Below are positions 22,780 through 64,000 of a DNA stretch of 64,000 nucleotides, piece by piece. The position numbers and the translations under genes were made by a program. Position 1 is the stretch's first letter. Every line of letters starts with the position of its first letter. This DNA is from Flectonema sp. DT1601 (taxonomy: Eukaryota). Location of the stretch: contig OZ025787.1 in the NCBI GenBank assembly GCA_964019425.1, forward strand, positions 620,001 through 684,000, given 5' to 3'. Below the pieces are notes generated by a model. It was given only the letters and a program-made list of their open reading frames with translations. It had not been told where the DNA came from and searched no databases.

Positions 22780-24636
22780 AGACGAGCCGCTATGAAAAAG
22801 AATATAGAGTTCGTTAGTTTCGCATCTCATTTCAATCGCTCATATATGTGACTCACTATCAGTCACTCATAATTAGTGGCAGACCTGCCAGTACTGTTTT
22901 TTTCCTGCCTTTAAAAAGTATTGTAAAGAGCTAAGAAAATTGACTATCCCCGTAAACCTGCTTAAGTCAGTTCACGGTTTCGTTGCACAAGCAAAAACCA
23001 AACATCGCACCATTCTATAGTAGTCAATTCTATTTTTTTAAAATTATTATTTTTTGCATCTCCGTTTTTTCTCCCTTTTCCTTTTCTCTAATCGAGCGTC
23101 AACAAAACCAAACTAACATCTTTCTTTTAAGTGAAATCGGTTTCAAAAAGCAAAAACGTTTTGTGTGTTCGTAAAGGGTTTTCTGATCTGACTAGCAGCC
23201 CTATGTAAGTGATTCTTTAACCCCATTGTTGCCTCGGAATTACTAAACTAAATCAAAGGCTTAATTGTATTTTTATTTGTACCGCCGTATTCAGTACGGA
23301 GACGAAACTATTCAGATTGAAAGCAGCCGTTATTTCTAATGGTCAAAGTTATTGATTTATTTTCCACCTTGTGACGAGATTCTGTCTGCGTTCAACGAAA
23401 TATCAGGCAATAATCTGAATAGTTTTTTTTTTTTTAAATTTGTGACTCATTTTTTACGTGTGACGAAATAATCTTTTTTTTTTGAGTTATCTGTGACAAC
23501 AAGTTATCTCAATTTCATCACACGCGTTAGAAAAACTGATCTTCCCTGACTGTGGCTAATTGCCTAATATTCTTTTTATATTTTTCTTTTGTACCGACGA
23601 AGTCGGAGAAGAAACTATTCAGATTGAAAGCCGTTATTTCTAATGGTCAAAGTTATTGATTTATTTTCCCGACAGGATTCTATCTGCGTTCAGGGAAATA
23701 TAACGATAAGGTTAATCTGAGGGTTTTTTTTGTTGCTCCCCAGTTTTTGTCGAACTGGAAGGCATTCTGACAGTGTCAGTTTGCAACAAAATCAAACAAA
23801 CAAAAATCTTTGTTCGCTGTGTGTGAATCTTATTACTACTCAACCAGTAGACAGAACCTACATCGTCAAGTCAGCTATCAATCGCTTCTCTCCCCAGCTA
23901 TTTTTAGTCATATCGTAAATGACTTCTCAAGCGACGGATCTCTCTGTTCTCCGAGCTGTGCTATTGACTAAAAAGGTTTTTGTTCTCAACAAACAACGTC
24001 TTCTGGTCAATGGGACAAAAAATGTAATTTTCCCTTTTATCTTTTTTTTTTCTAAACGTATCTTTTCTTTGATTAACGACTACGAATATTTTTTTCCAGT
24101 CAAGTACTTGATATTAATCTTGTTTTTAATACACTGTTTTTGTATTGTCAAAGTTTCACCCCCAGTTTTTGGAAGGCATCCTGACAATAGCAGTTTGCAA
24201 CAAAATCGAACGAACAAAAATCTTTGTTCGCTGTGTGTGAATCTTATTAGTAGACAAAACCTACATCGTCATGTCAGCTATCAATCGCTTCTCTCCCCAG
24301 TTATTTTTAGTCATATCGTAAACGACTTCTCAAGCGACGGATCTCTCTGTTCTCCGAGCTGTGCTATTGACTAAAAAGGTTTTGTTCTCAACAGACACGT
24401 ATAGTGATGTGTTCATACAAATTGCAGGGACCAGTGTTACACTATAGTCATTTCTCTTTGAATTGATTTGGTATTGTTTCATTCATTTGCGAACTGTACA
24501 TACAAATACTCTCACCATTACAGATTGATTAATTCATGGTGTGGAATCTGATGACCAATGAGGTAAAAGTGTATAGTTAGTTTTATAATTTCAAAAAGTA
24601 TTTTCTCACCAGGACAGTCATCACTATCCATAGAGA

Positions 24637-33770: not shown

Positions 33771-35163
33771 AGACGAGCCGCTATGAAAAAGAATATAGAG
33801 TTCGTTAGTTTAGCATCTCATTTCAATCGCTCATATCTGTGACTCACTATCAGTCACTCATAATTAGTGGCAGACCTGCCAGTACTGTTTTTTTCTGCCT
33901 TTAAAAAGTATTGTAAGAGCCAAGAAATTTGACTACACACGTAAACCTGCTTAAGTCAGTTCACGGTTTCGTTGCACAAGCAAAAACCAAACATCGAATC
34001 ATTCTGTGTAGTCAGTTCTATTTTTTTATAATTATTATTTTTTATATTTGTGCATCTACGTGTTTTCTCCCTTTTCCTTTTCTCTAATCGAGCGTCAACT
34101 AAACCAAACTAACTTCTTTCTTTTAGGTGAAATCGGTTTCAAAAAGCAAAAACGTTTTGTATGTTCGTAAAGGGTTTTCTGATCTGACTAGCAGCCCTAT
34201 GTAAGTGATTCTTTAACCCCATTGTTGCCTCGGAATTACCAAACTAAATCAAAGGCTCAAAGGCTCAATTGTATTTTTATTTGTACCGCCGTATTCAGTT
34301 CGGAGACGAAACTATTCAGATTGAAAGCAGCCGTTATTTCTAATGGTTAAAGTTATTGATTTATTTTCCACCTTGTGACGAGATTCTGTCGTCGTTCAAC
34401 GAAATATCAGGCAATAATCTGAATAGTTTTTTTTTTTTAAATTTGTGACTCATTTTTTACGTGTGACGAAATAATCTTTTTTTTTGAGTTATCTGTGACA
34501 ACAAGTTATCTCAATTTCATCACACGCGTTAGAAAAAACTGATCTTCCCTGACTGTGGCTAACTGCCTAATATTCTTTTTATATTTTTCTTTTGTACCGA
34601 CGAAGTCGGAGAAGAAACTATTCAGATTGAAAGCCGTTATTTCTAATGGTCAAAGTTATTGATTTATTTTCCCGACAGGATTCTATCTGCGTTCAAGGAA
34701 ATATAACGATAGGGTTAATCTGAGGGTTTTTTTTGTTGCTCCCCAGTTTTTGTCGAACTGGAAGGCATTCTGACAGTGTCAGTTTGCAACAAAATCAAAC
34801 AAACAAAAATCTTTATTAGCTGTGTGTGAATCTTATTACTACTCAGCCAGTAGACAGAACCTACATCGTCAAGTCAGCTATCAATCGCTTCTCTCCCAAG
34901 TTATTTTTAGTCATATCGTAAATGACTTCTCAAGCGACGAATCTCTCTGTTCTCCGAGCTGTGCTATTGACTAAAAAGGTTTTTGTTCTCAACAAACAAC
35001 GTCTTCTGGTCAATGGGACAAAAAATGTAATTTTCCCTTTTATCTTTTTTTTTTTTCTAAACGTATCTTTTCTTTGATTAACGACTACGAATATTTTTTT
35101 TCAGTCAAATACTTGATATTAATCTTGTTTTTAATACCTAAAGTTGTTACTGTTTTTGTATTG

Positions 35164-45562: not shown

Positions 45563-46050
45563 TTATTATCTTTTTATTTCTGTTTTAATTTTTTTTGTTA
45601 CGCATAAGCAGCTTAGCAGTTAGACTTTCATTAACATGAAAGGCCTGCTGGATTTGACATTTTTGAATAGTGCGCTAAGTATTTCATTTTCTATTACCTT
45701 GCAAAGTGATAATATATTTTTCAGATTGATCGACCTGTTATTATTATCCCTCTCTTTGTTTTTCTATTCCCTTCCCTAATTCTTGCTACGCTGACAATAT
45801 ATTTTTTTCTCTACTACTGGCTTTACAGAATGTGTTATTATATAACTGATTCCTCTTACGTCACTAGTTGTGTTTCGGGAGTATAAAATAATCGTTTTCT
45901 TTTTTTCTTAAAGCAAATATTTCGCTTTTCTTCTGTTTTTTGTCCGAACCCTTTGTTGGAAAGGGAATCGTGGCAGCGCTTATCCTTTGTAAAATTTTTA
46001 TGGTTGTGCAGGTGTTAATTAAAGGAAAATAGTGAAGTTGATCGTATTAA

Positions 46051-48437
46051 CCCTTACACCACCAAAACCCCCAAAATAACGGGTCCAAAATTTTGCTGTT
46101 TTTTCAAAAAGAGAAAAGGTACCCCCCCAGAAAACCTATGTACCAAACCGGACACAACCACCCCTACGGGGTCAATAGCACCTGTCACCCGCACACCTAA
46201 CGGTGCGTACCTTGGTGCGTTGTTGCACATTCAGCAGAACTAACAAAGTCGGCACTCAACGGTTTCCATTCATAGCAGCTGCATGTTATTCCCTTCCTGT
46301 ATTTTGAAAGGGATGATGTTTCTGCGCAACATCATGTCAGAGGGAGCCCAAGTAAAGAGAATGCCAAATCACGGCCAAAATTAAATCGAAAAATCAGCCT
46401 GTTTTTTGAGCTTGTAAAAGCCCTCTGTGGTAGCAGAAACTACGCGAACAACTTGCATCATAGCACAGCAGGTGCAGATACACAAGACGTCGAAGATTAC
46501 CGCATCGAGGCTGATAAGCTCGGAAAATGTAAATAACATCGATCCCAGATCATGGAACTTCATTAGTAACAGTGCAGCTACTGGGCTGGATTTATAACTT
46601 TCGCCTCTTTACCCCACTATTGGGCATGCTGGATTTTCGAGAAGTCGGCGGCTTAGGAACATCACAAGGAATTTTGTAGTTTTGGAGGGTGTGATACCTT
46701 TTGAAACATGGGTAAGCACAAAGCGCTTGATTGCATCGCTCACAGTAATACATTATTTGTATGCGCTTTGCGTGAACTGCACACTGACGAGCCTTTTCCA
46801 TCTTTCCGAGGTAGTCCCAAAGCTGGCTTGAGTCGATCAGGGATTGATACTGATGGTGGAGAAGGCGGTACTGATGGTGTTATTAATAGTGTTGGTGCTG
46901 CTCGGGTACATTTAAAGTACCTAGAAGCTGCGCAATCAGCGCCAACTTAAAGGAGGAAAATCTCTTGCTTCTCCAACCAGATTCACTCCTATCCGTCCAA
47001 ACTCCACCGTGTCCACGTCGCATCAGAATAAAAGAATTCAAGATGCACGTCTCCAATATAAAAATAAAAACCTTCAAATACCAGCGAGGAGATTTCTGCG
47101 TCCTACGGGTTCTATCCTTGATGGCACAGCGAGGTCTGCGCCTCCCTTCATGATGTTGTACTTCGCCACCTGCTGTGGCATCGGAACAGAGGATTTTTTA
47201 TACTTGGCCCGAACTTTGCCTGACCTTCTGCAGGTTGTCCTTCCCGTCTTTCCACTTCACGAGGTGGACCTTGTGGGACTGACTCCATACGCATCATACT
47301 TCTTCAGCTGTTGTTGGGACTCTTGTCTTGTAGGGCGGCCACGGTGTGCTTTTTTTTTCGATATCAGATCTTTATCAAGGTCTTTTCTGTCTTTTCTCAC
47401 TGCTCCAACAGCCTTTAGCCTACTTTCAGCAGCCTGACGAAAAACTTGTACCGAGAAAACCAATTGTCGAAGCACACCCAGTATCGATAAGCTTCAGTAA
47501 GGTTTCGAACCACTTTGTCCGGCTTACGGGAATCCTTCCTATGGTTCTTACCAACATAAAAAATACACTTCAGAGTATATCCCTCGGTCACACAAGGTGT
47601 AAACCTTGATTCCGAATCGCTTTCTCTTCATCGGAGAGTAGAACATGAACGATATACGTCCACGGCAGGGAATTATTGTTTCGTCGACACTTAAATAGCG
47701 GCCTGGTGTTACCGCGGATGACCACTTAGGGAGAACAAGGTCGAGCAGTGGACGCACCTTGTGAAGTTTATCACGCTTCGGATCACTAAAATCGGGAGCT
47801 GGCAATGTCGCAGAGAAGTGTAAATTTCTCTGAATTTCGGCAAAGCCATTACGCGAAAACCCTTTTGGAAAGTAGGGGGTCGACAGCATGTCATTTAAAC
47901 TCCAGTAATCTTCCAGGTTAGATTTTATTATTAGGTGCGTCAGTAGCGTCCCCCAACAAAAGCCCTCAGCTCCTGTACTGGTTTCGAATTTTCTTCCCTC
48001 TGTGCATAGCCTCAGAGTTTTCTTTCATCAGCTGGAAAACTGATTCTCTGAAGAAAAACTCAAAAACCTGCAGTTCCGAGTTGCCTGCAACTTTAACCTT
48101 TAACGTTTCTTGGAAACGTGACTTTATTCTTGGTAACCTTGTTACCTCCCCTCCCCATTCAGGGTCAGATACTTCGTCAAACAACGAATCGGAGCACACC
48201 GACGGCGGATCAACTTCATCAGAACTGTGGACCGACATATTTCCTAAGTTGATTTTGGCCAGCTATAGCGAATGGAAAAATTACTATTCAATAAAAACTA
48301 TTGCGACGCAACACGTAAGGAACACAAAAGACGTCGCAATAATACCTCTTCCGTGAAATCGTTGCACTCAGAAATGCAAAATTTTCACTTAGCAAAATTT
48401 TTTTTTTTTTCAGACTGATATATCCGGTGGTGTAAGG
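46051..48437 (-). mobile_element. Decayed piggyBac transposon
   Basis: TTAA|CCCTTACACCACC at the left end and GGTGGTGTAAGG|TTAG at the right. Fragmented minus-strand transposase with SVDETII, FDNWFS, YNIMKGGAD and a C-terminal Cys-rich domain (CERCNQALCAYPCFKRYH). Confidence 0.92.
46592..48238 (-). pseudogene. piggyBac transposase with multiple frameshifts and stops
   Basis: The DDD motifs are distributed over several short ORFs in different frames. Confidence 0.88.
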
Positions 48438-50197
48438 TTAGATCTTCCCCCTTTTTCACTTACGGTAGCGTGCTCAACTACGTTCACGTGGCCTCCACCA
48501 AAGAAACCAGGCAAAATGTTCAATGCCTCCTGTTTCATGGTGACAGTACTTTTATTTTTTGTGCAAAGACCTGCAGTATTCTTCCCAGATATATCTTTTC
48601 GTATCGTATCAATTTCCCCCTCTTTTTTTTCTTGTGACTTTTTTTTCTTTTGGAGTGATCCAAAAAAGTAATATTAGGATGTTGAAACCCGCAGCGTTGT
48701 TCTAAAGAATCAAGCTACTTTAATAGTTACTTTGATTGGCACAATACGTAAATATCTGCAGCGAAGTGTATTTTCAGGGTTTGCATGAGAGCTTAATTAG
48801 TCTTTTTTACCGACGACCGTGACAAGAGGCAGCTCATCTGCGTCTTGCACTTTTAAAGTGAATTTTCTCAGACAAAAATCCAGCTGACAGGGAAAAGCAA
48901 AGGAATCAGCATGTGTTTTCTTCCCGATGGGGGAAAAACAAAAAAAACATTGTGCTCTCGTCTGTCTTCTGGGATAGAGCTGGGGAAAGAGAGAGTTCTC
49001 TCTCTGCGTTAGCAGCGTTTCGAATCCCAGCAATATTTCTCAGTTAGAGGAAGCAAAAGTCATAACAAGGTTGCTGTAGGTGAACCTGCAGCAGATTATT
49101 ACCAAAGTCCTTAAAATTATTCTGGCAATCCATGCTGCGACCTCGAAACCGGCTGCTGCTTGAGTTACGAAGCATGGATTAACATCCCATTCTTTGTGTC
49201 TTTTTTACAATTTTCCTTTTTCCCTCCCTCATTTCTGTTACTCTTTTAGTAGCGTGTTATATGGGCTCCGCTATATTGATTCTTTGTAACTGCTAACATT
49301 CGGCGCATTGTTCGATTTACTAAAATGTTATTACCTTTCTGACAGCACGTATTTTGTTTTGTTAGGCAGTACAAGTAACTTTTATTTTCGTTCCCTTTTT
49401 TTCCCCCCTTCGAACTATTTGAAAAATGAAAAAAGGTAAGTCTACACAACAAGTTAAATAATCTACAAAACCTTTTTTTTCATTTTATTTTCTTCCTCTC
49501 CTTTTTATTCCCTACCCTCAAGTTTTAAAAAGCCCCGCTGTTCAGCATGGAGCAGATAACGGAGAAAGTAATACACAACATGAAAAAATGAATTCCGTTC
49601 CCTCTTGTTCTCTTGGTCTAATATCAATTTTAAATTGAAGTTGAAATTGGGTTTTTCTAAAATTTATCTTTCCCACAAGGTAACACCAACAGCATGATCT
49701 GTATTCTCGTTGCTTTTATTACTCTATGCTTCCGTTAATGCTACTCAATCAGACTGATGAAGCCTGCTCTTTTCATTCAGATTTAAAGAAATGTACGAAG
49801 GCTTCGACCGTGTTTGAAGAATGTTTGTGCCTCGTTGGCCATTTGATCAGATTTTTGAACCATTGTCTCAAGCTTATCATGTCTCCCCGGTGGCTGTAGG
49901 CTTTTTTATTTACTGTAACTACAAATAACATGGATGGCATACAAAAAAAAAAGCTCATCTATCTTCGGTGAGTCGGCCAGCAGTCACAAACGGACATTGA
50001 AAGCGCGGATAATTGTTGTTGCTGTGGAAACCTTGCTCTGCTGAAGAGGGAGTTGAAATTTTCCCCACCTGCATTCTGATTCAAGTTGTCTTCGAGAGTA
50101 CTTGAATCAGAATACTTGCTTTTGTCAAAAAGCTACTTATTCCTCCAGCTCATACGTCCTTCTCATCTTTTCTGGAGACTGGACCGCTGGTGAACGC

Positions 50198-50356
50198 GCA
50201 AACAGAACAAATCTTTTCTTTTGTTCTTCGTTAAAACTACTTTGAGACACGGTCTTCCGCTAATCATCGCACGAACAGAACATATCTTTTCTTGTTCTCG
50301 TTTAAACATTACCTGCAAACAGAGCATATCTTTTTTTTGTTCTTGTTAAAACTCTA
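50198..50356 (+). repeat. Three imperfect ~42-bp direct repeats (GCAAACAGAACAAATCTTTT...GTTCT..GTTAAAAC)
   Basis: Copies begin near 50198, 50269 and 50315. Confidence 0.7.
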
Positions 50357-50774
50357 TTTTAACAAAGCTTGCGAATCAGCCTGCGGGGGAGGAGGGGCGG
50401 CTGGGGGTAGCGACGGGACCCACGCCGGAACTGGCAAGCCTGAAGTGCGAGGGAGTAATTAGCCTTCCTATACTGTATGCACCTGGGAAAGAGAAGTATA
50501 CCTAATTGAATGAACATGCAGTTAACAAGTCTGAGATCACAAAGAAGAATCTACACTGTGGTGCAGATTACTTCTGCGTAGGGGTTGTACCGGGCCGTTT
50601 CGATTCGACGGGACACCGGCGGGGGAAGGGTGGGTGGGACTTAATTTAAATATAAGTTTTCTTGTGATGAAGACAGGGGTGTGAGAACTGATAAAGGGAT
50701 AGAAATATTTGATATCGTCAGAAAACTAATAGAGACATTGACCTATATAAATAAATAAGGAACGGCGATTATGT

Positions 50775-50846
50775 GGCTACATAGCTCAATTGATAGAACG
50801 CCGGTCTGAAATAATGGCGGTCGAGGGTTCAAAACCCGCTGACGGC
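50775..50846 (+). ncRNA. tRNA-derived (Phe-GAA-like) element in repeat A2, with a broken acceptor stem
   Basis: 72-nt canonical spacing: A box TAGCTCAATTGATAG, anticodon loop CTGAAAT, B box GGTTCAAAACC, then T5 at 50849-53. Confidence 0.75.
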
Positions 50847-50980
50847 GGTTTTTGTTTGGTGCTCAGTTTCGGTGGCAAATTACCTAAATGGAATTTTGAT
50901 AATTAGCCTTCCTATACTGTATGCACCTGGGAAAGAGAAGTATACTTAATTGAATGAACATGCAGTTAACAAGTCTGAGA

Positions 50981-52700
50981 TCACAAAGAAGAATCTACAC
51001 TGTGGTGCAGATTACTTCTGCGTAGGGGTTGTACCGGGCCGTTTCGATTCGACGGGACACCGGCACCACCACCACCACGCGAGTTAAAGAACGACCCCAA
51101 CGCTTGTTCAACCTTCGCTCTCGTTCCGTGTGAGACTTCCTCTCGAGAAGGAATGTCTGCTGGGTTTAGCTTCGTGCTTACCCAGGCAAGGGAGTAGGAA
51201 CATTTCAAAACTAAAAGGCATTCAATCGCAGTTATCAAACACCTGTTGAGACTGTGTGAGCGAACACACATCTTCTTCCTAAAAGCACCACAAACTGTAG
51301 TGTTGTCAACCCAGATGGAAAGGTGGTCGGCCTTTGAGTGTCTGTCCAAGAGCGTCCGCTTCAAGGATATTTATATGTCGGTCTTCACCAGCAGGCCATG
51401 CCGCACCAAGAATTTCCAGCTCACCTGTTTTCCAAACGATGACACCTCCCCATCCCTGCAATGAGGCATCTACAAACACTTCGGCAGTCCTCCCCTCTTT
51501 CTGCTCAGGCATAATTATTCTCTCCTTCTGCACAGCACCGATCCACATTTCTAATTCCCTCCTTACTGAACGGGGCAATTTTAGTACCTGCTGTACTTGT
51601 AGGGTCCCCTTGTTCAAGTAATTTGTGACCCTGCGAAGATACTTCAAGCTAAACCAGTACTTCCCAGGTGGAACTCCAACAATGGAGCTGGCATGCAACA
51701 GGCGACCTCCTAAGGACTCCAACTCCGATGCAGTCAATGAATCAAGGTTGGTGTTCTTGATTTTTCTCCCAATCTTGGTCCCCAAGCTCACCCTGTCCGT
51801 ATGGTGATCAAAGGTGACCCCCAAGAACTCATACTCCGGAGAGAGATCCACAGTATCACTTGGTTTCCATGTGATGTTTGCCATTCTGGCAAAGGAGTCC
51901 ATCCTCTCAGCTGCGCATTTAACCTTCTCCTTGGGACCAAATAACCTAATGTTATCGATCCACCAGTGAATCCAACGGCATCCTGCAGGGACTTCAAGAC
52001 TGGATTCTACCAGGTCTGCATACCTGAGGAGTCAACTTCACTCTTCAGTTTCTCTGATTCGGCTGGGAAGGTTTATTCTTTGACTCGACTTCCGATGGGT
52101 CATGTGTGTGCCCCAGAATTGATGAACACCATCGCTGCAGTAGTTGCTGGTGACCCGCTGTTCGTTAAGAAAGAATTTGCGGAGGAGGAAACCTCCGAAT
52201 GTACAGCATCCAGGTAACAAGAAATGTGCTGCAGTGGAACGAATGGTTCATATCCCCCAGACGAGATCAGTTCGTTCTGCTCTTTTGTCCAGAGGATGAA
52301 CCGCTGTCTGTTCCCCGTCTCCCTCTCCTCTCATACACTGTAAATGGTACATTCCGAGACAGCGGTACAGAATCACTCGGCACTGCAATACCACACTCAA
52401 CCAATTCTCTTGCATGTTTCTCTGCCAACTTCGAAGTTGCCCTCTTCGAGAGCCGTGCATTGACAGAAGAATCCCTAGGAAAGAAGGTGAGGTTCCAAAC
52501 ATAATCAAACCTCTTCAGGACCGATGGCAACATCCTCCCCCTTACAGCTGAAACATCCATCTTAGGTGTAGGGGCCACATGTAGTGGTGAAGATATCTCC
52601 TCCTTCGTTATGGGGATGCGCGTGCTCTTTGTTCTGTGCGTGAACTGCGCTGCTACGCCCCGCATCACATCCCGTTCACTCGCATTCTTTGATCTATCAA
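50981..52700 (-). pseudogene. RT/RNase H of the YR element, disrupted by frameshifts (~52330, ~51340) and an internal inversion
   Basis: Minus strand: NVPFTV, RQRFILW, WIDNIRL, EFLGV, and RH motifs VDAS, HINILEA, VDNTT, NPADIPSR. Plus strand: RDFKTGFYQ and RLPMG. Confidence 0.85.
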
Positions 52701-53915
52701 CTACAGGAAACAGGTGACATCCCCTGTCTTTAACGCCCTCGCCATTGCAATTGGGTTTCCGCCGTACCTCAGCGTGGTGTCTGAAAGGGCCGACACTCCT
52801 GCATGCTTGGCCAGCCTGCTTATCAGCCCTTCTGTGAGTCCTTGCTGCTCTTGGTCCGATGCCAGAACCTCCAACAGATGACTTATCGCACCTCTTTTTA
52901 TTGAGTGGGCGGTGTATCTTTTCATCCTGCCGTCCTGCTGGAACGTTTTCACTAATTTTGACGTGTCCCACGGGTGTAGTTTTTTGAACTCCCCCATCGC
53001 ATCCAGCAAGATCTTTATCTCTTCTGTGTGATTCCCCTTTATCACCGTCCATCTGCTTGGCGAGTAAGGGTTTGCCCTCCTTCCCTTCGGCGTGCGGAAC
53101 CAATCTATAATAATCTCTGACGGACTTACAGAGATGAACTGGTCCCTTGAGAGCGCTGCGGTCTCGCCCCATCTTGATGCAGTCTTCCAGCACACTAGCA
53201 TTGCCAAGTGGGTCTTTAAGTCTTGCCCCCTTGCCCAATCCACCAGGTCGAAACTTGTCATTGGCGTTGCCTGTTCCAGCGGTATTGCCGCCCCGTTCGC
53301 CCTCAGTGCTGCAGCCAAGCTCAACAGCGGTCCGTTTTCTATTCCGATCCTCCCCATCACTGCAGACAGACTCTTTGCATAAGAGAGAAGCCCTTGCACT
53401 GCCACACCTGTCGCCATCACGAACAGAACAGCCGAGCTTGCGTTTGCTGGTTTCTCCTTTTCCCTTGCCCAGGCCCGAAATCTTCTCCACAGATTCCGCC
53501 TGCTTGCTGTTGTCTTTGAGGCCCACATCTTCTCCAGTGTTTCTTGAAGCTTTTCTGTCGCCTCCATGTATGTGACGGAATCCTCGGCATGCCGCCTCTT
53601 CGTCCCCTCTGGGCATCCCTCCATCATGTCCAACAGGATCTTCCCAACCACATTTCCTTCTAATCCTTCTGAGGGCATTGTTTCCGTTGAATCTGCGATC
53701 TCTTCTGTTCCAACTGAGCTTATTTTCATCTCCCTTCCGCTGGGGAATCCTCGGACTGCGGATTTTACAATGTTGTCCGGGTCTTGAACGATTAAACTTA
53801 CAGATCCTCCTAACCTTGCTTTTAGTCGGCTGCTCCTCAACACCTGTCTTGAGTGCTTCTGCATAAGTCTTGCGGGCTTTCTCAACTTTAACTTTGGCAA
53901 TGGGGATGTTTCCAA
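52701..53915 (-). CDS. Tyrosine recombinase of the YR retrotransposon
   Basis: Catalytic set R (SRWGE), K (PKG), HxxR (HSIKR), H (AKH) and Y (LRY) is intact. Start codon uncertain. Confidence 0.88.
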   Translation of the reverse strand: METSPLPKLKLRKPARLMQKHSRQVLRSSRLKARLGGSVSLIVQDPDNIVKSAVRGFPSGREMKISSVGTEEIADSTETMPSEGLEGNVVGKILLDMMEGCPEGTKRRHAEDSVTYMEATEKLQETLEKMWASKTTASRRNLWRRFRAWAREKEKPANASSAVLFVMATGVAVQGLLSYAKSLSAVMGRIGIENGPLLSLAAALRANGAAIPLEQATPMTSFDLVDWARGQDLKTHLAMLVCWKTASRWGETAALSRDQFISVSPSEIIIDWFRTPKGRRANPYSPSRWTVIKGNHTEEIKILLDAMGEFKKLHPWDTSKLVKTFQQDGRMKRYTAHSIKRGAISHLLEVLASDQEQQGLTEGLISRLAKHAGVSALSDTTLRYGGNPIAMARALKTGDVTCFL

Positions 53916-53984
53916 TACTTGCGTGTCTAACCTTCGTTTTAGGAACGTTGGTTTTGTTGTTACTTGCAGGGTCCGGTCGGCTGG

Positions 53985-55223
53985 TCACTTCGCGAACCCT
54001 CTCCCGTTTCCCGACGATGGATACGTAGAGACAAACGATCTCCCCCCTTTCCGTTTCGGTTGTTGCATCTTCGCATTTCTATTTCTCTTCGCTATTGCGT
54101 TTGCTTTCTCCAGAGGGTCCTCCGATGCAACTTCTAAGATCATCTCCAACTCTGATCTCTTCGTACCATCCTTGCAAAAGTAATACTGCATCCGCAGTTG
54201 CTCCAACAGCTCGTTCCCCAACTCCACAAAGTGCGGGTTCTCCTCCCACCCTTCAACGTACTCCAAACCGAGAACGAAGTTCTTCAACTGCCTGAAGAAG
54301 CCAAGTAGCTGGCCCCCACCAACCTTGTACTCCAGACCGTTCACATATCGCTCCCTGATCCCATGGATCAGTGCCTCGGTCTTTCCTGACTTCATAACGG
54401 ATGCCCACTTTGTTACATCCCTGCCTGCAGACGGATCAGTCACCTCCCGTGTCATCGCTTCGTTCGACCCCGGTGCTGGTAGTTGCTGTGCTGCTCCCCC
54501 GACTACTGGAACTTGTTGAGCCGTAGTCAACCCGTTCTTCAGATCTGCTATTTCTTGTAATATTTTTTGGATCACTTCCGCATTCTGCTTTTGCTGATCT
54601 CTCTGCTGTTGTGTGATTTGCTGGATAACGCTAGCTTGTTGTTGTTGTTGTTGGGCCTGTTGTTCTCTGAAGGCCTCCCACATGCCTCCGATGTTCTCGG
54701 CTTTTTCAGTGGCCTCCCCAACCCTTCTCCTCACTGATTGGCTCTCCCTCTGATACTGGCTAAACGCCGTCTGCGTTTCGCTTCTCAGCGAGTCGAACCC
54801 CTGCTTGGTATCACTTCTCAGTGTGTCTGTGCTCTGCTGCAGCGATCCCATCGCATCCGCCTCGTCGTGCGTCACCAGCCTATCCGACCCCCCCTTAGAT
54901 ATCCGCTCGCTCATCCGGGCGGCGCTCTGGTTGACCAACTGCAGGCGGCTCCTTGATAACACACCAAGTATTACTAGACACTTATTCATCGAAAGTGTCT
55001 TGGCCGCATCATTGGAGATCCCGAGACACATGGCCAGTGTGCCTTGGATCAACCTTCTTGTCTCCTTGTCGGATCTCAATGTACTTAAGTCGATGCTAAA
55101 GGGGATGCTTGCAACCAGCTCGTCCAGATTGATATTATCGAGCTTCTTTGGTGGTTCCTCACCCATCTGCGCCTTCCAAGTCTCAATTAAGAACTCAGGG
55201 AACTCAAAATTTACACGAGTCAT
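53985..55223 (-). CDS. Gag-like ORF1 of the YR retrotransposon (412 aa, coiled-coil/Gln-rich)
   Basis: First ORF immediately after repeat A1. Assigned by position only. Confidence 0.7.
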   Translation of the reverse strand: MTRVNFEFPEFLIETWKAQMGEEPPKKLDNINLDELVASIPFSIDLSTLRSDKETRRLIQGTLAMCLGISNDAAKTLSMNKCLVILGVLSRSRLQLVNQSAARMSERISKGGSDRLVTHDEADAMGSLQQSTDTLRSDTKQGFDSLRSETQTAFSQYQRESQSVRRRVGEATEKAENIGGMWEAFREQQAQQQQQQASVIQQITQQQRDQQKQNAEVIQKILQEIADLKNGLTTAQQVPVVGGAAQQLPAPGSNEAMTREVTDPSAGRDVTKWASVMKSGKTEALIHGIRERYVNGLEYKVGGGQLLGFFRQLKNFVLGLEYVEGWEENPHFVELGNELLEQLRMQYYFCKDGTKRSELEMILEVASEDPLEKANAIAKRNRNAKMQQPKRKGGRSFVSTYPSSGNGRGFAK

Positions 55224-55401
55224 TATTTAACTTAATTTAAATATAAGTTTTCTTGTGATGAAGACAGGGGTGTGAGAACTGATAAAGGGATAGAAATATT
55301 TGATATCGTCAGAAAACTAATAGAGACATTGACCTATATAAATAAATAAAGGAACGTTTTTTATTTATTTAATAAATAAATAAAAGGAACGGCGATTATG
55401 T

Positions 55402-55473
55402 GGCTACATAGCTCAATTGATAGAACGCCGGTCTGAAATAATGGCGGTCGAGGGTTCAAAACCCGCTGACGGC
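55402..55473 (+). ncRNA. Second, identical tRNA-derived element in repeat A1
   Basis: Same sequence as 50775-50846. Confidence 0.75.
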
Positions 55474-55527
55474 GGTTTTTGTTTGGTGCTCAGTTTCGGT
55501 GGCAAATTACCTAAATGGAATTTTGAT

Positions 55528-55682
55528 ATTCCGGGTGATTGGGATGGGAATTGCCTGTTCAGGAGTGTGTGCCAACCCCTGGGGACGCCAGAGGGGTGGA
55601 AGGGCAGACATGGAGAGCTCCGCAGGAGAACGGCAGGGTACCTGACAATTTGCAGGTTTGCGGGCGTTAGAAGAGGATGGTG
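55528..55682 (+). pseudogene. OTU-like cysteine protease fragment
   Basis: IPGDWDGNCLFRSV...HGELRRRTAGYL resembles the OTU Cys box (DGNCLFRA...LR). Confidence 0.6.
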
Positions 55683-55746
55683 GCCTTCCTATACTGTATG
55701 CACCTGGGAAAGAGAAGTATACTTAATTGAATGAACATGCAGTTAA

Positions 55747-58700
55747 TATCATTAATTTTAGAACAGAAAAGTGAGAATAAGAAAAGTAGAGATCAATAAA
55801 AGAAAAGTATTCATTTCTGCAGTTTCCTAACATCAAAGGGTAATAGAATATGTAGTTTCAGGCCTTAATCTTATACTACTTGTCCCTTTTTAGGCCTTCA
55901 TCAGTAAGTTCTAAGGGACTTCATTCTATGTTGAAGTTGCTATCGTTCAAAGATAAAAATCCATCGGAGCTCGCCAGGATAGGGCTAGCAATGTTTATTT
56001 GCTTTTGCTCAATTTGAATTTTTGACGTCTGATCGTTTCACTATTACAGTCGAGTTAATGGATGAGTCGTCATCCAATTTGCGTTTTACTTTATCTTCGC
56101 ATATCATCAAAGGTCCTATATTCGCTGGTGTCATCGTAACATCCATATCAGTCTGAGCTTTTAATGGTATCATATGGAAACTATACTCTGTAGTTCGGTA
56201 CATCTTGTCAAAATGATCGAAAGGGAGTCTTAAATCTTTTGTGCCTTTAAGAATGTCTCGGATGATCATGGACTCAAATGAGACTAGCGCAACAATAAAG
56301 TGAGTCATCCTTGTTTTCGCTTTATGTAGAATAAGTGCTGCGGCTGCTTCAGGATAATCGAAATCTGCTGGGTTAACGAAGTACTCGATTCTTCTGTTGA
56401 ATTTAGTCATGCAAGCCATGTTAAGTACTTGTAGCGAGAACCAACCATCTGGTGATGGTTTATGCTCTGAGTTGTTCGGTTCTACTTTAAGAGATTCTTC
56501 ATAAAATCGCTGTTGGTAGTTTTGCAGAAAACTGAAGTTAATTCTATCGATATATAAATGATCTGCAATGAAGTTGAGCGCTGCCCATCCGCATTCTCCA
56601 CCGAGAAGACCTTCTCCTGATGTTTGATGTAGGGATGGTGGAAATCGTTTATCCAAGGAATGGCTTGTAGAGCCTGTGTGGTTAATTGTATCCTTTTCGA
56701 TGCTTAATGGGACTTTGTGACTAAACTTCTCAAAAGTAAGGTTGATACGTCGACGCATTGCAGCTGCTGTATTACCATCATCAATGTGAGAGCTAATGAA
56801 GCGGAGGCATGCTGCTCTGATATTGTCAGATTTATAGCCCCGGTTGAGTAATCTATAAGTTACCGCTTCAAGTTCCTGTAAAAAGTCTGCCTGGTTGTTG
56901 CAGATTTTTAGAGCTCGTAAGATCATGGTGGTAAAGATACCTGAACCCATTGATTCTTGAGCTGCGGAATGCTGATGAGTAAACCTTGTTGGCGTAATAT
57001 GCCAACCCCTGGCTTTGTCATTAACACTTAAACGAATCCATCGTTTATTTGTGTTAGTGATCTCTATTCGGATACGAATTCCTATATAAGAGACATCATC
57101 AATATTATTCGAAGTATCAGTGTAATCCATTGAATATAGACTTGCTGGTGGAGGGTCGCAACTCCAGGTGAGGAAGTCGTCGATGTATCTACACGAGTGG
57201 TCATGTTGCCGAGCTAAGTCTAGATTTTTTGCTTCAATTAAAGAATCGATATATGCGGATTCAACTCTATAGCAGTAGAGATTTGCTATATCGCTACTGG
57301 CGTTGCCACCCATTGGAATGCCTATTGTTTGTCTCCAAATATAACCTCTTAATGCAATAAAGGAGGAGTCAATACAGAATTCAAGTAATTTTTGACATTC
57401 TGCAAGCGCAAGAGAAGGGAATCGTGTAGGGTCACTCGATTCAAGACGTAAGATATTTTTGAAACTAAAGGCTTCTTGCAGTGCTTCACTTACTTTAGTT
57501 TTAATAGCGTTGTGTGGTAGGCGGGTGTACATTGTTGTAAAATCAAAAGTCTTAGGGGATAATTTTTTCAAAACCATCAAATTCTGTTTAATCGAACTAG
57601 AGACTTCATCATCTGATTCCACAATCCAGTATCGTTTGAACCGTGAATGCATATCTTTCTCTTTCAATATAGTCATCGCATTTTTAAGGATACTAGAGAG
57701 ATGTTGGTGCGCATATGTTGTTGCTGTTGCAGGTGCAAGATTATGATCCTTATCGTATTGTCGTTGTTCTGCTGTACCCGTGAAGGATGAGACACCAGTA
57801 ATCCATCTCATCCCGATAGCTGATTTGTGTAATTTAATCATTCCATATAGGTGTGGGAGTCGATCAGAGTGGCGGGCATTGATTGAAATGTTCATGTTCT
57901 TGAGGTTGGCTAGTAGAGTTGGTTCGTCTGATGTGATGCGTTCATAAGAATCACTTTGTAGCTGCTCTCGAAGTAAAAGCAAATAATTTATTTTACACAT
58001 GTAACCAATATCGTGCTGTCCTTTGTCAACTTTAAGAAACACAAACTGAGATTGAAGATTCTGAAGTTCAGTCCATGCTTTATTTGATAATGGTGAGTCA
58101 AGAAAGCTTAAGTCTTTACTTAATTTAAGCTGCAATTGTTTAAGAATTGTGTTTTTAAAGATCGATTTAAAGTTATCGCCAACGTTCTTGTATGCGTGAG
58201 TTATATATTCAGTAATATCATTTTCAAGTGATTCTAATGCAGCTGATGGGTGCACTGGGACTCTAAATTTTTGACCTCGTGCGAAGAAGTCTCTTAGTTC
58301 TTCTGAGACTGGTAAATCAATAGCGAGTCCGCAAGAATGGCCGTTGTATTTTAAACTATTCAGTTCTTGAGTACTGCAATTGCAAGTAGATTGAGTCGGG
58401 GAGTCTGAATTGATGCTTGTTGAAGATGCATTTAAGACGATATCACCAACTGTTGTTCCAAGTTTGTTACAGATGCGTGTTCTTTCAAGAGTTCTTAGAC
58501 AAGGACAGGTTGCTTTAACTTCATCACATCTAAGAACAGCGCCAAGACCAATACGATCTAATGCTTTGTGGCCAAGATTCAGTTTCAACCAGTAAGTGTC
58601 CGAATCCTTCTTCTTGTTTTCCCTTCTGAGATTGGCAGGATTTAGTCTTTGCATGAAACAATGCTCCAGCTGTTTTACGCGGGCAGTGTAATGTTCTTGA

Positions 58701-59841
58701 AAAAAGTTACTTCTAAGAAACTGCAAGACTTTTGTAGTGGAGCGTGTCTGCCAACGCGAGAAGTCGTATTCAACGAATTCTTCGTCAGTAAGCTTAAACA
58801 AATAGTTAAGCTTTGACGGGATCCATTTTTTATCCGTTGCGACTTGAAAAGAAACACCTGTTTCTAGTGTTATTGTTGTTGGTTGCAATGTATTGGAGGA
58901 CGTTGTGCTGCTCACATTGTAACCGTCATCTGCTACTTCGTTGAAGTTGTAGAAGTTTTCTGTAGCAAGATGTTGTTGTCTTACAGGTGGAGGTTGGCGG
59001 TTGTTTCTTGTGCGATTTCTGTTCGTACTCAATTTTGGTGCATAATAGCCACGCGTATTTAATAGATTTTTAAAGGAATTAATATAATACTGTTCACGTG
59101 GTGCGGCAGCTCTGTAGAAATCCGCTGCGTTGTTGTAATTGCAATCCGGAATCTTTTCTAGCGGCATGGCTAGGAGTGGGAATCTCTGCTTTGCCAGGAA
59201 CTCATAAAGCTTGTTCCCCTGGTAGCTGTTGTCCCTTGAGTGCTTTTTCGCAGCATACCAGTGGGAATGAACTCGCTTCATTGTAGAATTATACGTTTGC
59301 CCTACGTATACTACTTTCTGGTCTGATCTTCTAAAGAGTGCATAAATGACTCCGGGGGTACGCATTCCGGGTTGTCTGCCTCTTATTTTGCGGCGTTGTA
59401 AAATTTTCCTTTGGAAAATATGGCGTTGACGGTTACAGTTACTCTCGTAAACTGACCAATCTATTCCGCCGTTTCGCTGCTTGTTTCTGTGCGCAGCTCC
59501 TTCATTATGCCAATTAAAATGGGCTTGGCTAGAATGCCAGTTTGCGCGGGAACGTCCATGTTGGCGTCGAATTCTATGTTGTGGGTGTTGTGTAAAACTG
59601 TGTCTCACTTCTCTTACTGATGACTTTCTCCATGGATTAGAATTGTAAGAGGGAGGCAATGCTCGTTCAATGATTAGACGCATTTTACCAGCACCTACGG
59701 ATCGAACTGCTGCACTGATTGCAGCAAATGGGAGCTCTTTCCTGTTTTTTTGCTCTATCATAATTTTTAAAGTGCTTCCTGATTGCACTATCTTCCTTAA
59801 CTGGAAGTCTCTTAAAGGTAGCACTCTAAATAGTGCTGTCC
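55747..59841 (-). mobile_element. Penelope-like retroelement with N-terminal endonuclease (Naiad/Chlamys-type), 5'-truncated, 15-bp TSD TGAACATGCAGTTAA
   Basis: TSD at 55732-55746 and 59842-59856. One long ORF with GIY-YIG followed by RT. Hammerhead candidate in the 3' UTR. Confidence 0.9.
55852..55919 (-). ncRNA. Candidate non-circularly permuted hammerhead ribozyme in the PLE 3' UTR
   Basis: Minus strand reads GUCCCUU-agaa-CUUA-CUGAUGA-AGGCCU-aaa-AAGGGAC-aa-GUAG-UA^-UAAG-auua-AGGCCU-GAAA-CUAC. Predicted cleavage is between 55874 and 55873. Confidence 0.78.
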
Positions 59842-59848
59842 TGAACAT
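56009..59848 (-). CDS. PLE polyprotein: GIY-YIG endonuclease, reverse transcriptase, C-terminal Josephin-like domain (1279 aa; the ATG is supplied by the TSD)
   Basis: Endonuclease: GVIYAL...VYVGQT...KR...H...REQYYI...LN. RT: KVDKG, YGMIKLHK, FDFTTMYT, GIPMGG, RYIDD. C-terminus: ECGWAALN...GWFSLQVL...THF. Confidence 0.9.
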   Translation of the reverse strand: MFRTALFRVLPLRDFQLRKIVQSGSTLKIMIEQKNRKELPFAAISAAVRSVGAGKMRLIIERALPPSYNSNPWRKSSVREVRHSFTQHPQHRIRRQHGRSRANWHSSQAHFNWHNEGAAHRNKQRNGGIDWSVYESNCNRQRHIFQRKILQRRKIRGRQPGMRTPGVIYALFRRSDQKVVYVGQTYNSTMKRVHSHWYAAKKHSRDNSYQGNKLYEFLAKQRFPLLAMPLEKIPDCNYNNAADFYRAAAPREQYYINSFKNLLNTRGYYAPKLSTNRNRTRNNRQPPPVRQQHLATENFYNFNEVADDGYNVSSTTSSNTLQPTTITLETGVSFQVATDKKWIPSKLNYLFKLTDEEFVEYDFSRWQTRSTTKVLQFLRSNFFQEHYTARVKQLEHCFMQRLNPANLRRENKKKDSDTYWLKLNLGHKALDRIGLGAVLRCDEVKATCPCLRTLERTRICNKLGTTVGDIVLNASSTSINSDSPTQSTCNCSTQELNSLKYNGHSCGLAIDLPVSEELRDFFARGQKFRVPVHPSAALESLENDITEYITHAYKNVGDNFKSIFKNTILKQLQLKLSKDLSFLDSPLSNKAWTELQNLQSQFVFLKVDKGQHDIGYMCKINYLLLLREQLQSDSYERITSDEPTLLANLKNMNISINARHSDRLPHLYGMIKLHKSAIGMRWITGVSSFTGTAEQRQYDKDHNLAPATATTYAHQHLSSILKNAMTILKEKDMHSRFKRYWIVESDDEVSSSIKQNLMVLKKLSPKTFDFTTMYTRLPHNAIKTKVSEALQEAFSFKNILRLESSDPTRFPSLALAECQKLLEFCIDSSFIALRGYIWRQTIGIPMGGNASSDIANLYCYRVESAYIDSLIEAKNLDLARQHDHSCRYIDDFLTWSCDPPPASLYSMDYTDTSNNIDDVSYIGIRIRIEITNTNKRWIRLSVNDKARGWHITPTRFTHQHSAAQESMGSGIFTTMILRALKICNNQADFLQELEAVTYRLLNRGYKSDNIRAACLRFISSHIDDGNTAAAMRRRINLTFEKFSHKVPLSIEKDTINHTGSTSHSLDKRFPPSLHQTSGEGLLGGECGWAALNFIADHLYIDRINFSFLQNYQQRFYEESLKVEPNNSEHKPSPDGWFSLQVLNMACMTKFNRRIEYFVNPADFDYPEAAAALILHKAKTRMTHFIVALVSFESMIIRDILKGTKDLRLPFDHFDKMYRTTEYSFHMIPLKAQTDMDVTMTPANIGPLMICEDKVKRKLDDDSSINSTVIVKRSDVKNSN

Positions 59849-61329
59849 GCAGTTAACAAGTCTGGGGTCACTTAGAAGAATCTACACTGTGGTGCAGATT
59901 ACTTCTGCGTAGGGGTTGTGCTGGGCCGTTTCGATTCGACGGGGCACCGGCACCACCACCAGTGGGGGCGGCGGTGCACACCCCGGTGGTCTACTCGAGG
60001 GTGGGGGGATCGACCCAAGAGGACGTCGGTGAGATGGATCCGGTGGCGAACAAGGACCGGATGGAGGCACGCGAGGCACCCGTCGGGGGAGCACCGCGGG
60101 GTACACGTCCAGGGAAGAGGCGGGGTGTGTCCCCCGGACGCGAGTAGTAGGGGGGCAGGCGCAGCGCAAGCTGCTCCTACTGGTGTCGTCTGGAACGCGG
60201 AGATGGAGAAGCTGGGGGCGGCGGCATGCCTGATACACATGGGGGCGCTCGACAGGAGGTTCACGTGGTCGGGCTGCCTACCGACATGGGACGAAGCGAC
60301 GGCGGAGTACGTGGCCGGGGGGTTAACTGTTCGAGTTTGTACGTAAAATACAAATGTTTTGTATCATAGACAACGTAACGATAATTTAACATTAGTTCTG
60401 AGATGCAAACCCGCAAACAGTGGCTAAAGGTAAAGGTGTTGGTGTAGGTATACACTCTGCGATTGACGTAAATACTTTACATTATAATAAATGTTTCTAA
60501 CTCATCTGCATACACATCTCTTTTTCCGTGTTGTCATTCAGTGCAGTACGGAATCGAGTTATTCAATTTTGAATGAATCGTGAGCCCTGGGAAACCAAAA
60601 CCAGGGTATAATGTAATACGGCAGAGTGTAGTTTCACCTACAAATCACTTGCTTAAAATCTTGTTCGCTATCGGTCTCCGGGAGATATTTAGCCTTAGCA
60701 GAGGGATTCCTGCCAATTAGCTCAGCATTCCCAAACTGAGCGACTCTTGCTGACTGTGAAGGTAGACTGGATGGCTGCTCAACAATTCTTTGAAAAAAAT
60801 ATGTTAGCAAAAATTGCTAGTTCGTAGCACACTACTGGCGGAGCAGCACTCACCTTAAATAAATTATGGTGGTTGCATGATCCAACAAATAATGTTGGGG
60901 TGACGGCATCGACGGGTTTTGGGCTAAGACATTTAATTGGCAAAGTCCAGGGTGGGGAATGTATTCAAAAAGAAAACAATCACCTGTGTCCCTGTATGTT
61001 CTATACGCGAACATGTCAGAGTTCTCACAAAATTGACCTTCATGGTTAAGGGTTGCCTCAGTATTTCCTTTAGTTTATGTAACAGGAATGTACTTTCTTT
61101 CAATAAAGAAAACAAAATGACGTAAGATAGATTTACATTATTTGAATTATACGAATTACAATAATATTTATCTCTAAATGTTGTCCTAATTCAAAGGGGC
61201 TGCGGGCCAACTCAGGTAACTGACAAAGAAACTGGACGACGGACGACGGACGCACAAGGAGGCAGAAGGGCTGAGACCAGCACAAGAAGTGGGACAACCC
61301 GAGGAAAAAGAGCGACCCCCGCCGAAGGA

Positions 61330-61400
61330 GGAGAAGCTGTATGCGGTGGCGGTGGGATGGAAACCGGGAGTGTATGCATCGTGGGGGTCAGCCCACGCAA
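61330..61400 (+). pseudogene. RNase H1 N-terminal hybrid-binding (Cauli_VI/viroplasmin-like) domain fragment
   Basis: KLYAVAVGWKPGVYASWGSA matches the YAVxxGxxPGVYxxW motif. It sits in a GC-rich island with no long ORF. Confidence 0.65.
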
Positions 61401-64000
61401 ACCCGCAAACGAAGGGGACGAGAGGCCGGAAGGCAAAGACGGGGGCAAAGGGGGCCGGAAAGGAGGACCCAAGTCCGCAGGTCGCTTGCAGGTTTGCTGC
61501 AAGCGGAAATGGGAGAGTCCACCCCGAGCTCAGGTGAACGGCAGGCGAGGAGGTACGCGATCCTCAGTGCCGATCCGCGGTGTGAAAGCATGGCCTAACG
61601 ATCCTTTGGTCTCGCTTCATGTTCAAGGGATGAAGCCGGGTTTGACAGAAAAATTACCACAGGAATAACTGGCTTGTAGCAGCCAAACGTTCAGCCACAG
61701 CGACGTTGCTTTTTGATCCTTCGTTGTTGGCTCTTCCTAGTTATTCATTACTTTATCATCATTTTCTCTCTCAGGTGCAATACAGTGATGGAAAGCTAAT
61801 TATCAAAATTCCATTTAGGATATATCCGTGCTTCGATGATGGAGGTTATGAACTTGGAAGCGGTAATGCTACTGAAAAACGTGCATGAAAAAAAGAGCAA
61901 AAGGTTGCTTTTCTTCTTACTACATCCCCATCTGTAGTTTATCTCACGTTTCTATTTTATTGAAAAGAATGAAATGAAAGATAACCTTAATACTTATTTC
62001 CATCACAGGGTAGAATTGCAGCACATTACAGAGATAAGTTCAATAAAGAACTTGATTGCTTTGGATTGATTCTTTTCAAAAGGAAACCTCAGCACAAGCA
62101 GCAACCTCTGTCGAGTTTGAATTACTTTTCCAAATCCTGGCCTCTTACCTTCTAGCCTGGGGAATGTAAGAGAAGAGTTAGAATTAACATTCATCGTTAG
62201 TGATATCTTCTCAACACCTGCACCCCTCCAAACTGTTGTGTATTCATCATTTGTAATAAAAGATCCCAACATTGAATCCATTTTCCACTGCCAGTATTTC
62301 TCATTGCCATCGGTTGTTTGCTTCGGTCTCTTTGTCTGTCTCTCTTCTTTCTAAGTTTTTCATAACCAATGCGTAGTATTCTTTATTCGGTGTAGCATAA
62401 AGTGATTATTCCTCTTTCTTTATTAGACGTGAATAAACAGACTGCAGCATCTGTTGAAGAACTGCACACAGTGTGAAAGACTCCTGATGTTGATCCTACA
62501 ACAGATTGGGATTCATCCTCATATCCACATGTAATAAACCTCACTTGATACGTCCCCCATCTGAGATGTTGGATACATTCTTGGCGTATGGAATCGAGTT
62601 ATCAATTTCAAACAATCGTGAGACGAGCAATTACGTATGCTTGACAATAGCTACTTGATAGTTTTTCCATATCACTTGGAGGATGTCGCTGTAATAGAAA
62701 ATACTCAGGTACTTGAATGAACATTGCACAACAATAAGCCACTGCTTTACAGTAGGCCTTGAGTGAGGCCGGGTAATTCCATAAATCAAAACATATACAG
62801 CAGACTAAACGCTACATAAGTGTAAAAGAACGGTACTTGGTTGCTCCTCACAGGTTGTGACTCTGGGAAGCAACAATAATAGATTTCGTTTTTAAGCAAT
62901 AATAGAATAGTAATCCTGACAACACCAAAACATATACTTCAAGACTTACCAGAATTGACCCCTTGCCCGCAGCTCGCATGAAAGTCGAGTGAAAAATAAT
63001 AAAAAACCATTCAGATTAGCCTTATATTTTGTTGAACGCAGACAAAATCCTGTCGCACGGGGAAAATAAATCATGACCATAAGAAATATCGGCTTTCAAT
63101 CTGAATAGTTTCTTCCCTGACTACGTCGGTACAAAAAAAAAAAAAAAAAACATTTGCTGCTTATTAGTTGGGCACGCGTTTATTATCTTTTTTTAAAAAA
63201 AAAAAAAGAAAGATCGTTATAAATATGGTATACTATAATAGGAAACAAGTAAACAAAACGAAGGACGACGTTTTTAAATAGTATGAGTGGCTGGACAAAA
63301 AAATTCAAAACTATAATGTGTGTTTTGTAAAGCAAAATTGCCTGACAAAGGCATAAAGTGTAAATGTAGTCCAGCAAGCTCGGATAAATATAATTTTTTT
63401 AACGGTTTATTCGTACAAAACAGAAACAGAACAGTGCAAAAGCTCGATCATGGTCGCAGTGAAGAATTATTTCAAACAAAATAAAACACCTAACGAATAC
63501 ATAAAACAAACTGTGATCGGGTTTCAAAAGAACTCCACTGTAGACCACTGGGCTAAAACGCCGACAATTATCTTCGAGAGGGGTCCGAAAAGAATAAATT
63601 ATAATAGAATTGCACCCTACTAATCCACAGGGACAGGGGAAAAGTTCGATTGTCGTCCCGACGCGCAACTTGGTGACAACGGTGGAGACCAATCGTGGAT
63701 TTCGGAAGTAGAAGGGATGCTAACTCGGGAAACAGAGGAGGGGTGGGCCCCTCGAGACCCACAACTTGGAGATATCGGTGGTGACCAATCATGAACACCA
63801 GTTGTCGGAGTGACACTACATTGGGGAGGTGTGGATGAGTTGTCGGATCGTAGAGTGTGTATTTGATCACGCAAAGCGAAGCATTCCGTTGAGGGTAAGA
63901 ATTGACCAAAGTGGGAAGTAATTGGTGAAAGTGGTGGAGAGTAAGGGGTGAGCGGATTAGACAGCAGGACACTGTTTTCCCCAAATTGAGAACTCACACA

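Follow-up and report, generated by a model that had tools for sequence, protein, structure and literature searches.

A captured tRNA gene in the terminal repeat of a tyrosine-recombinase retrotransposon family, with a plausible role as a promoter element

The host retrotransposon and its surroundings

The window analysed here, a stretch of 64,000 nucleotides, contains one retrotransposon of 5073 nt, which runs on the minus strand from 55528 to 50456 and consists of repeat A1, a gag-like ORF, ORF2, ORF3, repeats B1 and A2, an 18-nt spacer, and repeat B2 (Table 1). Neither the gag-like ORF1 nor ORF2 has a Pfam match. The structure model of ORF2 (pLDDT 81), however, retrieved Cre recombinase in a fold search (E 2e-6), with 35 matches at E <= 0.001 that are tyrosine recombinases (YRs) throughout, among the matches listed, whereas searching the sequences of solved structures with the alignment of YRs gave no real match. 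For ORF3, RVT_1 and RNase H domains were matched by Pfam in full-length relatives. The copy in the window is dead, with an inversion of ~240 nt in the reverse transcriptase (RT) region (~51954-52190) and a frameshift in RNase H (RH) near 51330. Repeats A1 and A2 have 0 mismatches and differ solely by a 36-nt fold-back insertion in A1, located ~20 nt before the 5' end of the tRNA-like sequence described below and missing from A2 as well as from contig 1 of public run X1. Both the RT inversion and this insertion look like template-switch scars, and the insertion could mark the 5' end of the element RNA. The leader ahead of gag contains candidate splice-acceptor AGs at 55335, 55280, and 55253.

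Table 1. Features of the retrotransposon and of the tRNA-derived module (window coordinates).
Feature	Position	Strand	Basis or remark
Repeat A1, element 5' end	55230..55528	-	repeat comparison
Gag-like ORF1, 412 aa, intact	53985..55223	-	named by position
Tyrosine recombinase ORF2, 387 aa, Cre-like fold	52701..53864	-	fold search of predicted structure
RT/RNase H ORF3, overlaps ORF2	50987..53988	-	broken in this copy
Repeat B1	50900..51064	-	repeat comparison
Repeat A2	50639..50901	-	repeat comparison
C-rich A2/B2 spacer, common to distant relatives L003, L011, L013	50621..50638	-	
Repeat B2, element 3' end	50456..50620	-	repeat comparison
AT-rich fold-back insertion, 36 nt, A1 only	55348..55383	.	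placement ambiguous by a few bases
Pyrimidine-rich leader between module and gag	55230..55340	-	putative role
Pseudo-tRNA in A1, 73 nt, cloverleaf-colinear, 6/21 pairs broken, no CCA	55402..55474	+	
Box A, tRNA positions 8-19, G19 to A	55409..55420	+	
Box B, GGTTC core intact	55453..55463	+	
T5 run one base past the discriminator, predicted Pol III terminator	55476..55480	+	
Identical second module copy with T5 run, in A2	50775..50853	+	

VIPER and TATE elements are described as having a gag-like ORF, overlapping YR and RT/RH ORFs, A1...B1-A2-B2 repeats and no target-site duplication (TSD) (PMC6681497, PMC12278014). The present element has the same order of gag, YR, and RT/RH with YR overlapping RT/RH, split direct repeats A1...B1-A2-B2 of similar size, and no TSD, only a TA being common to both element ends and the B1/A2 joint, which confirms it as a VIPER/TATE-type tyrosine-recombinase retrotransposon. 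It differs from VIPER and TATE, for which no tRNA-like sequence is described (the main text of PMC6681497 uses the word tRNA 0 times), and in its host, likely a diplonemid or a near relative judging from the relatives of the element and the gene layout. The named relatives of both YR (45-52% identity) and RT (43-46%) are Diplonema papillatum proteins, with which the family groups (SH-aLRT 99) in a quick RT/RH tree constructed without a reference VIPER or TATE sequence, and all 16 ORFs of at least 150 aa between 4497 and 45562 lie on the same strand. The reading made from the sequence alone, which had placed the element in a genome likely transcribed polycistronically, thus agrees with a likely host among such euglenozoans; for D. 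papillatum, TATE-like ORFs and polycistronic clusters are reported, with no curated elements (PMC10161547). The C-rich A2/B2 spacer, whose cDNA strand is G-rich, is possibly a replication signal; it recurs in 3 of the 7 relatives checked by pattern (L003:4461, L011:4076, and L013:4187; 28-35% YR identity).

YR-family copies seem to pile up at this locus. A second, truncated member has its split B1-type repeat at 55683-55746 and 59842-59961, 155 bp from A1, and the sequence inserted into that repeat with a 15-bp duplication (55747-59856) is likely a Penelope-like element with an N-terminal endonuclease: its 1279-aa ORF (56009-59848, minus strand) has a GIY-YIG-like motif ahead of the RT, with scores below 0.9 for GIY-YIG plus RVT_1 look-alikes. 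An inverted B/A junction remnant (~40 nt of B and 19 nt of A) lies at 61762-61819, beside a fragment of large-subunit rRNA (61672-61717), and an isolated, diverged 3' piece of small-subunit rRNA is found at 48958-49101; scattered rRNA pieces have been reported in D. papillatum (PMC10161547). The rest of the window includes four tandem units at 6631-42013, in each of which a subtilase gene (Peptidase S8) precedes an ORF of very large size (1140-2411 aa) made of 45-nt and related tandem repeats, as well as a degenerate piggyBac-like transposase remnant at 46040-48340 (DDE_Tnp_1_7, E 2e-20 at 47551-48024). An intergenic repeat of 150-165 nt is dispersed through the gene array (15169-15325, 23270-23729, 34274-34732) and occurs inverted near 63 kb (62994-63150).

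Origin and decay of the tRNA-derived module

Within repeat A, of which it takes up 79 of 263 nt, lies a tRNA-derived module that is antisense to the element ORFs and has its tRNA 5' end facing gag. The 79 nt at 55402-55480 recur letter-perfect at 50775-50853 and nowhere else in the 64-kb window; since the whole repeat has 0 mismatches, this identity is no independent evidence. The tRNA 5' end and the gag ATG are 179 nt apart in A1, and 143 nt apart in the usual form, which lacks the 36-nt insertion. An identical tRNA-shaped sequence in both A repeats, antisense to the ORFs and ~180 bp from the gag ATG, was what the sequence-only reading had described, and these points hold; its length of 72 nt becomes 73 nt when the discriminator is counted.

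The Rfam tRNA model RF00005 aligned 55402-55474 to its positions 1-71 with 19.4 bits (E 0.051 on 121 nt; gathering score 29), and ARAGORN missed the module by default as well as among the relaxed calls listed, down to -ps75. Our own covariance model, for which we used 38 real tRNAs and excluded the six that a BLAST search with the module had retrieved, gave both copies 28.2 bits (E 7e-6 on 64 kb), the next-best site reaching 10 bits. TRGCY and GGTTC are present, box A lacks its YGG end, and a box A...box B pattern, written with the module in view, occurred twice versus 0 times in 100 shuffles. BLAST against phage and plasmid records placed tRNA genes on top, the best match being ungapped at 53/73. 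Because Rfam, our own model, and BLAST all align the module to tRNA, its tRNA origin is firm, beyond chance. The donor isotype cannot be named, as tRNA-Asp (53/73) and tRNA-Trp, -Pro, -Ala, and -Ile (51-52) are nearly level, all of them bacterial or phage records. Exact module patterns were absent from the viral and prokaryote contigs searched.

As a tRNA, the module has decayed. The broken acceptor stem noted earlier is real (three pairs), and the damage extends further, with one broken pair each in the D, anticodon, and T stems. Its RNA does not fold into a cloverleaf (folding z -0.69). When broken pairs were counted in 18 control tRNAs under a fixed numbering, which inflates the count in rows that are off register, 8 had none and four had 5-9, a count that we set aside as a test. 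With 19.4 bits versus the curated 29, 6 of 21 pairs broken, and an anticodon that is altered in the X1 contig, the module does not resemble a functional tRNA gene. Nor does it show the head, body, tail, and TSD of a SINE2: it has no SINE body, no tail, and no flanking direct repeat of at least 6 nt, and within the 64-kb window our tRNA model detected copies in the two A repeats alone. It ends in the discriminator, one G, and T5, with no CCA. Given the lack of CCA, body, tail, and TSD, the captured sequence is a tRNA gene and its terminator rather than a SINE or a mature tRNA that had been reverse-transcribed. A captured tRNA had already been suspected from the sequence alone, a view borne out by the gene-type T5 end and the missing SINE parts. 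Both boxes, the T5 run, and the full ungapped length persist despite the 6 broken pairs; the AT-rich spacer beside the module has undergone indels, of 36 nt in A1 and of 2 nt in the X1 contig.

Distribution within the family and among distant relatives

The family is multi-copy: its near-identical gag proteins form clusters of 11 and 9 members, and its RTs cluster in groups of 12 and 20 with 99-100% identity. By these sequences it is young and recently multiplying. Two subfamilies (P0063 and P0064 clusters; P0084) are ~18% apart in gag and the start of YR, with RT/RH 98-100% alike, which suggests a gag swap between them. The gag of the second subfamily is ~82% identical to that of the window. 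Two public runs contain small parts of the element. In X1, contig 1 (418 nt, depth 2.5) runs from the A repeat, with the module in it, into the start of gag; X2 yielded no piece covering the module. The 16 listed gag differences of the X1 contig amount to 5 amino-acid changes, and since all 5 fit the second gag subfamily (P0064 cluster), the module is present in both subfamilies. The proposal that it is built into the family repeat is thereby upheld, with the qualification that, RT being 98-100% identical between the subfamilies, an A repeat common to both may reflect recent recombination.

Compared with the window over 144 nt, the X1 contig has 5 differences, of which 3 are listed, at tRNA positions 35, 36, and 38, and 2 are unplaced. 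None of the three listed differences is in a box; one of the two unplaced ones could be in box A. The anticodon is GCG in X1 versus GAA in the window copies, and the three changes in the anticodon region may represent one event. The GAA anticodon loop described earlier is thus a property of the window copies but not of the second subfamily, and with the anticodon changed there, the label "Phe/GAA" is not meaningful. The 5 differences in 144 nt (3.5%) compare with 35/1351 (2.6%) in YR/RT/RH (P 0.58, with the X1 contig at depth 2.5). The chance of 0 changes in the 23 box letters is 0.55, for one X1 contig in which 2 of the 5 differences are unplaced, and 12 invariant letters would survive neutral decay with at most one change with a chance of 0.12-0.47, for a module that was noticed for its tRNA look. 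The placed differences fit retained boxes and a free anticodon, yet at a rate no lower than in the coding core they prove little about the preferential box conservation that the sequence-only reading had set as a check.

A metagenome scan yielded 45 loci with 23-43% YR identity to the element; no YR relatives occurred in the viral contigs searched. Terminal repeats were present in 12 of the 45, with the full A1...B1-A2-B2 arrangement in 5 and the B1-A2-B2 block in 2 more. Our tRNA model detected the module in 0 of the 45, including the 7 with a whole A repeat, the sister families (P0090-P0092, RT 62-69% identical) and those of D. papillatum being known as proteins only; the best scores in the relatives, 14.1 and 13.9 bits (E 0.14-0.15), fell inside ORFs. 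A tRNA-Thr called by ARAGORN -ps in relative L007 was rejected because of its poor pairing and its location within the RT/RH ORF. The module is therefore family-specific and not general in these elements, and such elements evidently work without it.

A possible promoter element and competing explanations

Terminal repeats with tRNA-derived parts have precedents. Helenus, Cassandra, and Ajax (TRIMp3), the closest known class and one that the sequence-only reading had not named, have LTRs with Pol III promoters derived from tRNA or 5S, and "not a few" Repbase LTRs are stated to contain tRNA-like parts, which means that the motif class is not rare; DIRS elements are not mentioned in the portions of that article available to us (PMC10886601). 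The YR element shares with Helenus and TRIMp3 a tRNA-derived stretch carrying box A and box B in the terminal repeat. Helenus, Cassandra, and Ajax, however, are gene-less LTR elements of 0.3-1.3 kb with a primer-binding site, polypurine tract, and TSD, whereas the present one has 5073 nt and three ORFs and belongs to a YR family; Helenus and TRIMp3 have two LTRs and a TSD of 4-5 bp in place of split direct repeats without a TSD; and the TRIMp3 Pol III unit makes the element's own RNA, as shown for Cassandra, in contrast to a unit that is antisense to the ORFs and closed by its own T5 (PMC10886601). Foamy viruses are likewise autonomous retroelements with a self-contained Pol III unit in the terminal repeat, but their cassettes are hairpin pri-miRNAs in U3, unlike a tRNA-derived relic with no stable hairpin (PMC6950176). 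In trypanosomatids, boxes A and B of a divergent tRNA-like sequence stand head-to-head with the unit they drive, as here; the partner there is a short, single-copy Pol III RNA and the function has been shown, while here it is a mobile protein-coding unit known from its sequence (PMC4950102). No Rfam snRNA or 7SL match was found in 49000-64000 at E <= 5. Our search found no report of a YR retrotransposon whose repeats contain tRNA-derived sequence; it did not extend to subscription journals, Repbase, and most supplements of PMC6681497.

As the best explanation of the module, we tentatively put forward a cis-acting Pol III-box promoter element upstream of gag, with Pol II as the likely enzyme; on this analysis, its likely use is that of a mobile switch for turning on transcription and not that of a tRNA. 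An entire tRNA gene, terminator included, was captured into the A repeat of one VIPER/TATE-type family and has since decayed as a tRNA. Pol III factors would bind the boxes and clear nucleosomes on the upstream side of the tRNA, as at trypanosome tRNA genes, and Pol II would most likely start sense transcription there, just upstream of gag; spliced-leader trans-splicing at a pyrimidine-rich AG ahead of gag would give the RNA its cap. The module would lie outside the 5' end of the transcript and be rebuilt in every cycle from the internal A2 copy. In the model for this class of elements, split direct repeats allow sequence outside the RNA 5' end to be rebuilt from A2, and A is therefore a place where an external promoter can reside. 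An analogous repeat-based rebuilding is described for DIRS-1 (PMC7192593). In trypanosomatids, snRNA genes depend on the boxes of divergent tRNA-like sequences, with box A 104-106 bp from the start (PMC4950102); T. brucei tRNA genes have a nucleosome-depleted region upstream (PMC5359979), and acetylated H3 adjoins tRNA clusters within polycistronic units (PMC2695483). The promoter reading is favored by the ungapped length, the retained boxes and T5, the presence in two gag subfamilies, and the head-to-head position; the loss of G19 of box A and the 0 of 45 distant relatives with a module count against it. Its precedents are kinetoplastid throughout and none is diplonemid, and TFIIIC is described as not identified in T. 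brucei (PMC5359979).

A neutral fossil is a genuine possibility, only slightly less probable than the promoter reading: a tRNA gene taken up a single time from a flanking site would have been retained since then through the copying of A in each cycle. Damage in every stem, an anticodon free to change, the missing module in 45 of 45 distant relatives, and a conservation that does not exceed that of the coding core are all what it would predict, and the suggestive observation on the other side is that the ungapped full length, boxes, and T5 have been kept through at least 6 stem changes next to a spacer that takes indels. We consider it unlikely that the module is a barrier or a source of small antisense RNA, in which Pol III would make a RNA of ~75 nt and the unit would act as a Pol II terminator, as a chromatin boundary at both ends, or as a feed for silencing. 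The box A-box B-T5 unit is complete, the element is antisense to a 45-kb array of plus-strand genes, trypanosomatid tRNA-like sequences are transcribed (PMC4950102), and tRNA genes are frequently located where Pol II terminates (PMC2695483, PMC5359979), yet a barrier in A1 and A2 would obstruct the element's own RNA, which must cross A2, and the module RNA has no stable fold. A passenger tRNA-headed SINE inserted in the repeat is scarcely credible: although insertion of a SINE has been proposed as the origin of Helenus and Cassandra (PMC10886601), here T5 directly follows the tRNA. A passenger SINE was one of the cases that would have overturned the sequence-only reading, and the missing body, tail, and TSD speak against it, as do the absence of any copy outside A in 64 kb and the occurrence of the module in the second subfamily. 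Hardly more probable is a primer-binding site or primer scar. The complement of the tRNA lies 54 nt from the 5' end of the sense RNA, in the orientation and position of a primer-binding site from which a host tRNA could prime cDNA, and the primer of DIRS-1 is described as not known (PMC7192593); against this stand the gene-type T5 end without CCA, the relatives that lack a module, and a 3' acceptor strand that does not pair with its own 5' strand and is thus unlikely to match a working tRNA.

Direct use of the module as a Pol III promoter for full-length element RNA, like that of trypanosomatid U-snRNA genes, is improbable. Pol III would then transcribe the whole 4.8-kb element from the divergent pseudo-tRNA, trans-splicing would supply the cap to make an mRNA, and the split repeat would regenerate the external promoter in each cycle, a chain of steps we regard as a long shot. 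Module and gag do stand head-to-head, and a start 104-106 bp away, as in PMC4950102, is predicted at 55303-55305 in A1 and 50676-50678 in A2, within A and before the ATG. Across its 5073 nt, the sense strand contains 0 T5 runs where 4.8 are expected, and at least one such run occurs in 18 of 20 relatives of at least 3.5 kb. However, host ORFs are T5-poor as well (1 run in 10 ORFs), codon shuffles account for the absence in each element ORF (P 0.30-0.92), and the non-coding part reaches only P 0.054. Avoidance of T runs was accordingly rejected as a sign that Pol III reads through, its significance being lost against host ORFs and codon shuffles, and the terminator count leaves the direct Pol III reading open without giving it support. 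In addition, seven T4 runs follow the predicted start, T4 ends Pol III transcription in L. major (PMC2695483), and known Pol III elements are shorter than 1.3 kb (PMC10886601).

Collectively, the sequences point to a real pseudo-tRNA, fixed in a family of protein-coding YR retrotransposons as part of their terminal repeat; a function for it is plausible. Diplonemids are among the most abundant marine eukaryotes, and euglenozoans have few defined Pol II promoters, which bears on how mobile elements get transcribed in them. Were the module a fossil, it would merely be a source of false tRNA calls. Were the direct Pol III reading true, this would be a Pol III-driven autonomous retroelement with a borrowed euglenozoan snRNA trick. 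If the module is a promoter element as proposed above, the principle of Cassandra and Helenus would extend from gene-less LTR elements to a tyrosine-recombinase family that encodes proteins, with the orientation reversed; a 260-bp test piece for divergent protein-coding transcription from a tRNA-type box pair would be at hand; and the family would have spread Pol III boxes to dozens of sites in the genome.
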